In this document: in pieces, positions 19,937 through 20,150 of the stretch | Layout of the letters: the number at the start of each line of letters is the position of its first letter | Numbering within the stretch: the first letter of the stretch is position 1 | From: Escherichia coli | Lineage (GTDB): Bacteria; Pseudomonadota; Gammaproteobacteria; Enterobacterales; Enterobacteriaceae | Assembly: GCF_003334815.1 (NCBI RefSeq) | Contig: NZ_QOWO01000018.1 | Length of the DNA stretch: 64,000 nucleotides | Reading direction: 5' to 3' (one strand) | Notes under the pieces: generated by a model | The model's database searches: none | The model's input: only the letters and a program-made list of their open reading frames with translations | What the model was told of the DNA's origin: nothing | Position numbers and translations under genes: made by a program

Positions 19937-20150
19937 TCGGTGCCTGATGCGACGCTGGCGCGTCTTATCAGGCCTACGAGTCCGCGCATATTTTTATGTT
20001 TGCGCCCGTTTGTAGGCCGGATAAGGCGTTTACGCCGCATCCGGCGTTCGGTGCACGGTGCCTGATGCGACGCTGTCGCGTCTTATCAGGCCTACGAGTT
20101 CGCACATATTTTTATGTTTGTGCCCGTATGTACGCCGCATCCGGCGTCCG
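19937..20150. repeat. Tandemly duplicated REP/BIME block (about 100-115 bp unit x2)
   Basis: Two near-identical copies of tgcctgatgcgacgctg(g/t)cgcgtcttatcaggcctacgagt.cgc.catatttttatgtttg.gcccgt.tgta...gccgcatccggcg; second copy lacks the ggccggataaggcgttta segment. Confidence 0.75.

Follow-up and report, generated by a model that had tools for sequence, protein, structure and literature searches.

Published lengths of the REP classes are 35 nt (y), 29 nt (z1), and 37 nt (z2). BIME-1 joins z1 and y through a long linker, L, that carries an IHF site and is found in single copy, BIME-2 joins z2 and y in tandem copies with short linkers of variable length and sequence, and atypical BIMEs are chimeras of both (Ton-Hoang et al. 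2012). The BIME-2 class is strongly bound and cleaved by DNA gyrase, according to the Nunvar paper. The number of BIME copies at a given locus varies by strain (Ton-Hoang et al. 2012), and BIME length polymorphism between E. coli strains is also reported by Bachellier et al. 1997, as cited in the Nunvar paper.

The closest tested analogue of the lfgJ-lfgK array analyzed here is REP325, the naRNA4 locus located between yjdM and yjdN in K-12, a Y/Z2 BIME-2 array that acts as a partly Rho-dependent attenuator and as a stabilizer of upstream mRNA. The lfgJ-lfgK array is likewise composed of tandem alternating Y and Z2 elements between co-oriented genes and matches the same Rfam family. However, it comprises two units instead of the six found in K-12, along with a private 34-nt tail-to-tail linker and a truncated terminal Y. 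While the function of REP325 was tested experimentally, a role for the lfgJ-lfgK array can be proposed by analogy. A second related system is formed by the REPtron BIME-2s at rayT, which also combine Z2 and Y with head-to-head linkers of 13 to 14 nt, vary in copy number between strains, and adjoin Flag-2, the lateral flagella cluster that contains lfgJ and lfgK. The beginning of the lfgJ-lfgK linker is similar to the 16 nt found after the rayT-proximal Z2. Nonetheless, the tail-to-tail linker of the BIMEs located 3′ of rayT is 17 nt long (AAACTTGTGCC.GA.CG) compared to 34 nt in the array, and the REP tails read CATGCCTAC at rayT and CAGGCCTAC in the array. The third known type, BIME-1 (or RIP/RIB: Y, L with an IHF site, and Z1), is present in the same cluster in canonical form at lafA-lafB and with a shortened L at lfgD-lfgE. 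The lfgJ-lfgK array differs from it by carrying Z2 rather than Z1, by its tandem repeats, and by a 34-nt linker that is not the L motif. Its length varies among strains exactly as described for other E. coli BIMEs (Ton-Hoang et al. 2012). In the literature searched, the BIME polymorphism reports do not describe Flag-2 junctions, and no description of REPs or BIMEs at these junctions was found, including in the main Flag-2 comparative paper. That paper notes that Flag-2 is often reported as cryptic or nonfunctional in E. coli and that it is seen as ancestral in some lineages.

RESULTS

Eight REP sites are found in the Flag-2 part of the window

The window, i.e., the whole stretch of 64,000 nt of E. 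coli DNA that was analyzed, contains most of the Flag-2 cluster, from lafK at position 936 to lafU ending at 32253, based on the list of open reading frames (ORFs) and on the annotation of FORC_081. To the right of lafU are found dinB, yafNOP, pepD, gpt, frsA, crl, phoE, proBA, and tRNA-Thr (thrW, 43521-43593), followed by an island; an Rfam IS009 match of 202 bits is located at 49953-50152. FORC_081 is the closest complete genome among the matches listed, with 99.9% identity across 19600-20500. The lfiI gene, encoding a FliI-like ATPase, is an intact ORF of 445 amino acids in the window (5624-6961), whereas the FORC_081 annotation lists it as a pseudogene interrupted by an internal stop (6025-7362 of the FORC_081 locus), and the window strain is thus not exactly FORC_081. 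In ECCTRSRTH03, IS5 and phage genes replace the region from lafT to proA-proximal DNA.

REPs were defined as imperfect palindromes of 29 to 37 nt with a conserved GTAG/CTAC tetranucleotide at the foot, and the two REPs flanking rayT, taken from Nunvar's Table 1, served as class consensus. Based on the published lengths and Nunvar's Table 1, the GCCTGATG-type REPs were assigned to Z and the GCCGGATG-type REPs to Y. The original prediction listed REP-type palindromes at 727, 7822, 14711, 16786, 17650, 19937, 23549, and 25855. Every one of these positions lies within 5 nt of a real REP, and the classification assigned canonical E. coli Y, Z1, or Z2 elements to all eight (Table 1). Twelve REPs matched their class consensus with 0 to 1 errors, and 2 further variants with 3 to 4 errors. 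Fifteen matches to the 14-mer tail motif CTTATCMGGCCTAC were counted in the window for 0.6 expected, a count that 0 of 100 shuffles reached, and all of them fall in 729-25937; no REP was found in the 26- to 64-kb part of the window. A query containing the lfgJ-lfgK block returned 7 to 53 or more matches per genome in 5426 of 5426 genomes, which excludes that the palindromes are not repeated elsewhere.

Table 1. Coordinates of the REP sites, array components, and neighboring features in the window
Feature	Position	Strand	Basis or remark
lfiM-lafK: Z2 (GTAG on +), 14 nt, Y; BIME-2-type pair, divergent genes	729..811	.	Rfam naRNA4 732-808, 85.9 bits
Y, 16 nt, Z1 pair; convergent cytidylyltransferase and glycosyltransferase genes	7824..7902	.	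Consensus match
lfgD-lfgE: Z1, 18 nt, Y; BIME-1 with L minus 16 nt	14712..14792	.	After lfgD
lfgF-lfgG: lone Y REP, 9 nt past lfgF stop codon	16788..16821	-	
lfgG-lfgH composite: Z2-like head half, degenerate expanded-loop REP, complete Z2-like REP (17771-17807)	17650..17807	+	
lfgJ (rod-binding protein)	19626..19925	+	Stop 16 nt before first REP; ORF list, RefSeq annotation of FORC_081 locus
Z2 REP, unit 1 (GCCTGATGCGACGCTGGCGCGTCTTATCAGGCCTAC)	19942..19977	+	0 errors vs Z2 consensus; 14-nt arms 86% complementary
34-nt tail-to-tail linker, copy 1 (GAGTCCGCGCATATTTTTATGTTTGCGCCCGTTT), Flag-2-private variant	19978..20011	.	Genome counts, fetched loci
Y REP, unit 1 (GTAG tail at 20012)	20012..20045	-	0 errors vs Y consensus
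14-nt head-to-head short linker (GTTCGGTGCACGGT)	20046..20059	.	
Z2 REP, unit 2	20060..20095	+	0 errors vs consensus
34-nt linker, copy 2 (GAGTTCGCACATATTTTTATGTTTGTGCCCGTAT)	20096..20129	.	Terminal-unit variant, common to all multi-unit alleles
Y REP, truncated, head arm only	20130..20146	-	18-nt deletion
Candidate sigma-28-type lfgK promoter (TAAG-N15-GCCGCTTT)	20170..20196	+	Immediately right of array; pattern match
lfgK (hook-associated protein), downstream of array	20229..21605	+	ORF list, FORC_081 annotation
lafW-lafZ: lone 37-nt REP, Z2 length, GCCGGATG stem; convergent genes	23550..23586	-	
lafA-lafB: canonical BIME-1: Y, 35-nt L (AATTCAATATATTG, IHF-like), Z1	25855..25952	.	10 nt past lafA stop

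The L linker of lfgD-lfgE lost 16 nt between CTGCA repeats, and the full 34-nt L is kept in strain 38I23. The lafA-lafB linker is an Rfam ES036 match (44.6 bits versus 37.6) and contains a candidate IHF site, which reads as one mismatch away from the IHF consensus WATCAANNNNTTR; this BIME-1 is found in only some strains. Downstream of the lafA BIME-1, at approximately 25976-26007, a hairpin and the T-run after it form a terminator-like structure (CAACACCGCCTGCGGGCGGTGTTGTTCTTTCT) that is conserved in all strains.

The sites are all intergenic, and at seven of the eight the REP starts 6 to 27 nt past a stop codon. The Flag-2 part of the window has 14 spacers of at least 50 nt, of which 8 contain REPs, and no REP was found in the GT-hyp, hyp-lfgN, lfgM-lfgA, lfgA-lfgB, lafZ-lafA, and lafU-dinB spacers. 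Sigma-54-type promoter matches were detected upstream of lfgB (13161-13176, perfect) and lafB (26088-26103, one mismatch), and the sigma-28-type pattern has its sole match in the Flag-2 part of the window between the array and lfgK. The same pattern scan detected no promoter-like motif in lfgD-lfgE, lfgF-lfgG, or lfgG-lfgH; since they are devoid of such motifs, these three sites are probably inside an lfgB-J operon, the limits of which are predicted from motifs as well. Hence, three sites are probably intra-operonic, two would precede a downstream promoter (lfgJ-lfgK and lafA-lafB), two separate convergent genes, and one separates divergent genes. The view that REPs colonized nearly every operon boundary of the cluster is consequently only partly right, and too broad both for the number of occupied spacers (8 of 14) and for the kind of junction involved.

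The block TTAAGAA..CGCCGCTTTTAA, located on the right side of the array, shows conservation in genera ranging from Escherichia to Leminorella and Enterobacter, suggesting that the array was inserted between the lfgJ stop codon and the putative promoter and left the latter undisturbed. lfgK thus seems to possess its own sigma-28-like promoter, a pattern match to which conservation lends support. Neither an intrinsic terminator nor a sigma-70 promoter was detected in 19600-20400.

The lfgJ-lfgK array has the composition of a BIME-2

The region 19937-20150 was initially described as the direct tandem duplication of a BIME unit of about 100 to 115 bp, with a small deletion in the second copy. A repeat search identified a direct repeat of 92 nt at 19938-20147, with 90% identity and a start-to-start distance of 118 nt. 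The array itself (19942-20146) corresponds to two 118-bp BIME-2 units, each made of Z2, a 34-nt linker, Y, and a 14-nt linker. The tandem BIME repeat was therefore correctly recognized, but its period is 118 bp. This period is absent from the Tandem Repeats Finder output, presumably because fewer than two full copies are present. The deletion was also recovered, as a loss of 18 nt from the tail arm of the second Y (GTA/CGCCGCATCCGGC versus GTAGGCCGGATAAGGCGTTTACGCCGCATCCGGC). The order Z2>, Y<, Z2>, and truncated Y<, with alternating orientations, is that of a BIME-2, and the 14-nt head-to-head linker resembles the 13-nt linkers found at rayT. According to this composition, the block is an E. 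coli REP/BIME-2 array, which is a known kind of element that the literature searched does not describe at lfgJ-lfgK.

Both Z2 copies and Y have 14-nt arms with 86% complementarity, and the fold has interrupted stems. The sense-strand RNA of 19916-20170 is predicted to fold at -117.7 kcal/mol (z = -5.2), with one hairpin per REP. Furthermore, the segment formed by Y, the short linker, and Z2 (20015-20092) matches Rfam naRNA4 (RF02564) with 83.9 bits, above the gathering score of 59.5, as does the lfiM-lafK pair. These two matches could indicate that the array is a functional naRNA4-like nucleoid-associated RNA that condenses the chromosome with HU, a reading that we consider highly improbable. 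The naRNA4 family was built from REP325, such that any stretch of Y, short linker, and Z2 will match. Moreover, a 2026 preprint found no measurable nucleoid compaction for REP325 and naRNA4, and the array is absent or limited to a single unit in most strains. The match was thus rejected as a sign of a dedicated RNA gene and regarded as a by-product of the Y/Z2 composition.

The number of units at lfgJ-lfgK varies among strains

Using a query restricted to the unique flanks, the lfgJ-lfgK locus was found in 1276 of 5426 complete E. coli genomes, which are thereby Flag-2 positive. Its span, measured on 19600-20500, was tallied in an evenly spaced sample of 58 full-length matches. Most spans were between 773 and 787 bp (48/58), and the remainder were of 1018/1019 bp (5/58), 851 bp (3/58), 981 bp (1/58), and 1255 bp (1/58); a span of 1005 bp was also seen among the locus lengths. 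The 901-bp form of the window was found in 0 of the 58 sampled genomes and in nine records among the matches listed. The 2-unit form is a rare allele. Among the representative alleles that were aligned, those of E. coli contain 1, 2, 3, or 5 units, and Escherichia sp. MOD1-EC7003 has 6. REPs are known to be targeted by insertions, and about 64 nt that form a hairpin of their own (CAGAGAAAATCGGCCAGTTTTCTCTG) are inserted in the 851-bp allele of PV0838, in the tail of the Z2 REP (around 20340-20440 of its locus).

In alleles with one unit, Y is intact and the tail-to-tail linker has 13 nt (GAGTCGCCCGTAT), while the 34-nt linker of multi-unit alleles corresponds to this 13-nt linker with an AT-rich insertion of 21 nt. 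A terminal unit with a truncated Y is common to the 2-, 3-, and 5-unit alleles of divergent strains (cluster 1). A recent and simple duplication from one to two units in this lineage, followed by the 18-nt deletion, would be in line with the 90% identity of the two units and with the single-unit allele being by far the commonest in the sample. We nonetheless find this scenario very doubtful, as the single-unit alleles differ in their linker and Y and are not the direct parent, and the sharing of the truncated terminal unit places the deletion before the window allele.

The comparison with ECCTRSRTH03, which carries a 3-unit allele and shares 667 nt of flanks at 100% identity with the window, also argues against a simple duplication. 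In this strain, unit 1 has the loop TGGCG and the short linker GTCCGG, and unit 2 has the loop TGACG and the short linker GTTCGG. Unit 1 of the window is chimeric, with the loop TGGCG and the short linker GTTCGG. An exchange between units 1 and 2 that removes one unit accounts for this chimera with 0 extra substitutions, whereas expansion from two to three units requires two. Because of this difference, it seems reasonably probable that the window allele arose by loss of one unit from a 3-unit allele, the direction of change being the most parsimonious one. The block is thus better described as a rare 2-unit allele, most parsimoniously a contraction from three units, than as a newly formed duplication. 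YA-1 carries an identical 2-unit array within flanks that diverged by about 2%, such that the 2-unit form may be older or recurrent. Within a strain, the internal units are the most alike (R32 units 2 to 4, MOD1 units 1 and 2, and ECCT units 1 and 2), which suggests amplification in place.

Other Flag-2 junctions are polymorphic

REPs were found at the same junctions in other strains and are not confined to this one, although with different arrangements. The lfgD-lfgE spacer is 22 to 23 nt long without REP in SMS-3-5 and PV0838, contains a single Y in YA-1, and contains a BIME-1 in other strains, to which are added one copy of the 118-bp module in JJ2434 and three in R32. Depending on the strain, lfgF-lfgG has a single Y or Y-Z2-Y, and lfgG-lfgH has a single REP, the same REP with 121 additional nt, or a different G-rich palindromic repeat. 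At lafA-lafB, some strains have a single Y and others a BIME-1, and JJ2434 carries the 118-bp module twice, in inverted orientation. In the window lineage, the additional 121 nt of lfgG-lfgH are flanked by a duplicated 21-nt REP head half (TGTCGGATGCGACGCTGACGC) and hold an expanded-loop REP-like hairpin. This segment was considered as a multicopy miniature element, which was rejected because it is single-copy in 205 genomes. The expectation that these spacers are prone to recombination agrees with their behavior as hot spots of length change across strains. Several insertions being polymorphic, colonization appears to be partly old and partly ongoing.

Other sequences were also observed at these junctions. 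The G-rich palindromic repeat (…TGATGCCCTCACCCCGGCCCTCTCCCACAGGGAGAGGG…GGGTTAGGGTGAGGGG…) occupies the lfgG-lfgH spacer of E. coli EC1, R32, and YA-1 and the lfgJ-lfgK spacer of Pseudocitrobacter, and an apparent 23-nt remnant of it starts the lfgJ-lfgK spacer of E. whittamii. Genes for a RelE/ParE toxin and an HTH antitoxin are located between lafW and lafZ in EC1 (23892-24542 of its locus), where other strains have only the single REP.

A private 118-bp module is found near rayT

The 34-nt linker, extended in the query by 5 nt of REP tail at both ends, is present in 640 of 5426 genomes, in 1 to 8 places each (median of 3), and has no match in K-12. The maximum of 8 places corresponds to the 5 and 3 units of R32. 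In the fetched loci, the linker core occurs only at lfgJ-lfgK, lfgD-lfgE, and lafA-lafB. The possibility that it represents a generic BIME-2 l/r motif was rejected given these counts and its absence from K-12. Since the linker is confined to three Flag-2 junctions, the 118-bp module is, as far as its distribution indicates, a local subfamily that would have moved among three junctions located 5 to 11 kb apart.

The single-copy RAYT gene rayT (yafM) lies between yafL and lfhA, where it borders Flag-2 on the left. FORC_081 has an intact copy (6110-6607 of the fetched locus; 4183-4680 in the K-12-like locus), some 6 kb to the left of where the window starts and at a distance of about 26 kb from the block, with Z2/Y BIME-2s on both sides. 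The closest genome hence carries inverted REP pairs and a cognate RAYT gene, the two components of a REPIN/RAYT system, although mobilization by RayT is only predicted. REPs are clustered in this region, with 6 flanking rayT, at least 14 in Flag-2, and a single BIME over the next 18 kb on the far side of rayT. At a density of 355 annotated REP elements per 4.64 Mb, approximately 1.9 REP loci would be expected in 25 kb compared to the 8 observed (Poisson P of about 1e-3 by our own arithmetic). In addition, when the initial 16 nt of the linker are aligned in register with the flank of the rayT-proximal Z2, 14 of 16 positions are identical, a score that 0 of 2000 shuffles reached. This likeness provides a lead, not proof, that the 118-bp module derives from the REPtron end near rayT.

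These observations raise the question of whether the changes in copy number and the spread of the 118-bp module were catalyzed by RayT on single-stranded BIMEs, through cleavage at CT sites and strand transfer, rather than by RecA-type unequal crossing-over or slippage. TnpA-REP is able to recombine BIMEs in vitro, generating products with multiple REPs, and a model of transposition followed by local amplification was already proposed (Ton-Hoang et al. 2012). The intact rayT gene in the closest genome, the occurrence of the private-linker module at three neighboring junctions, once in inverted orientation, and the similarity between the linker start and the rayT-proximal flank are all consistent with such an activity. 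However, this similarity is short, and the change from three to two units involves exactly one unit, in register, over about 90 nt of identity, as plain homologous exchange predicts, and carries no signature separating RayT from homologous exchange. The number of BIMEs also differs little with or without tnpA-REP (Ton-Hoang et al. 2012). We therefore regard catalysis by RayT as unlikely and retain unequal exchange between units as the preferred explanation for the length changes.

A broader scenario can be drawn, in which a Flag-2-private BIME-2 subfamily was seeded from the rayT-proximal REPtron, spread over 5 to 30 kb to three junctions, and was amplified in place, such that alleles with 1 to 6 units would act as heritable read-through dials between the rod/hook genes and the hook-associated-protein genes. 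This scenario is speculative and, in our opinion, has little chance of being correct as a whole. If true, the spread of the private linker would provide a natural trace of cis-proximal BIME mobility driven by RayT.

REPs at Flag-2 junctions are shared within Escherichia

An outgroup scan was performed with LfgK as the query and one genome per species. Based on LfgK identity, Flag-2 is found in other Escherichia (96 to 98%), Pseudocitrobacter (97 to 98%), Citrobacter and Phytobacter (88 to 91%), Leminorella and Enterobacter (76 to 79%), and Mangrovibacter (47%). Y, Z1, and Z2 REPs are present at the same junctions in Escherichia sp. E1V33, E. whittamii, and MOD1-EC7003; the lfgJ-lfgK spacer of E. 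whittamii is 85 nt long and without REP. In contrast, no full E. coli-type REP was detected in the Flag-2 spacers of Citrobacter, Phytobacter, Leminorella, Enterobacter, and Mangrovibacter. The REP-free outgroup spacers measure 27 to 91 nt at lfgD-lfgE, 17 to 30 nt at lfgF-lfgG, 19 to 78 nt at lfgG-lfgH, and 69 to 104 nt at lfgJ-lfgK, and Citrobacter has its own REP-like hairpin after lfgG. Such short and REP-free spacers suggest that the eight sites are derived and arose by insertion in the Escherichia lineage. The REPs regarded as founders, i.e., the lfgD-lfgE pair, the lfgF-lfgG Y, and the Y located 3′ of lafA, are common to E. coli phylogroups and cryptic clades, which indicates that they are old. 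Host-type colonization during a long residence of Flag-2 in Escherichia is therefore the best reading, as was anticipated from the density of repeats: same-junction REPs in cryptic Escherichia and their absence from four outgroup genera support long residence rather than recent transfer, in agreement with the published view of Flag-2 as ancestral in some lineages.

Separately, E. coli-type Y, Z1, and Z2 REPs were observed in the Flag-2 clusters of Pseudocitrobacter faecalis and P. vendiensis, and P. vendiensis and E. coli R32_14_1F share the 118-bp unit at lfgD-lfgE with 100% identity. These observations suggest that Flag-2 of Pseudocitrobacter was recently transferred from Escherichia, with the REPs as a fingerprint of the donor.

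DISCUSSION

We consider it likely, taking these elements together, that the lfgJ-lfgK block is a BIME-2 variable-number tandem repeat located in a 3′ spacer before the putative lfgK promoter, that its 2-unit allele derives from a 3-unit allele, that the eight sites are Escherichia-derived insertions, and that the hairpins may serve as an adjustable stabilizer and attenuator. According to this model, a BIME-2 array would have entered the 3′ untranslated spacer that separates the lfgJ stop codon from the sigma-28-like lfgK promoter, and its length would shift by steps of the 118-bp unit through unequal exchange between units. On the transcript of the lfgB operon, the hairpins would shield upstream mRNA from 3′ exonucleases, and the array would partly attenuate read-through into lfgKL, which would also be transcribed from its own promoter. 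The effect would scale with the number of units and thus constitute a quantitative dial.

The functional part of the model is put forward more tentatively. That the array stabilizes the 3′ ends of lfgB-J and damps read-through into lfgKL in proportion to its unit number is proposed by analogy with the stabilizing and attenuating activity of REP325, and we give this role somewhat less than an even chance. It is fully possible that the array is instead a neutral selfish element with zero measurable effect, since Flag-2 is often considered cryptic in E. coli.

REPs, BIMEs, and their length variation between strains are textbook features of E. coli, and the present finding changes no concept. Nevertheless, three neighboring junctions with a private module next to a single-copy rayT form a compact natural system for the movement and amplification of BIMEs, and the allelic series of 1 to 6 units is ready material for the recent model of REPs as dual 3′UTR regulators. 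The REP content also provides independent sequence-level support for the presence of Flag-2 in Escherichia since before the split between E. coli and the cryptic clades, and the E. coli-type REPs mark the Flag-2 cluster of Pseudocitrobacter as a likely export from Escherichia.
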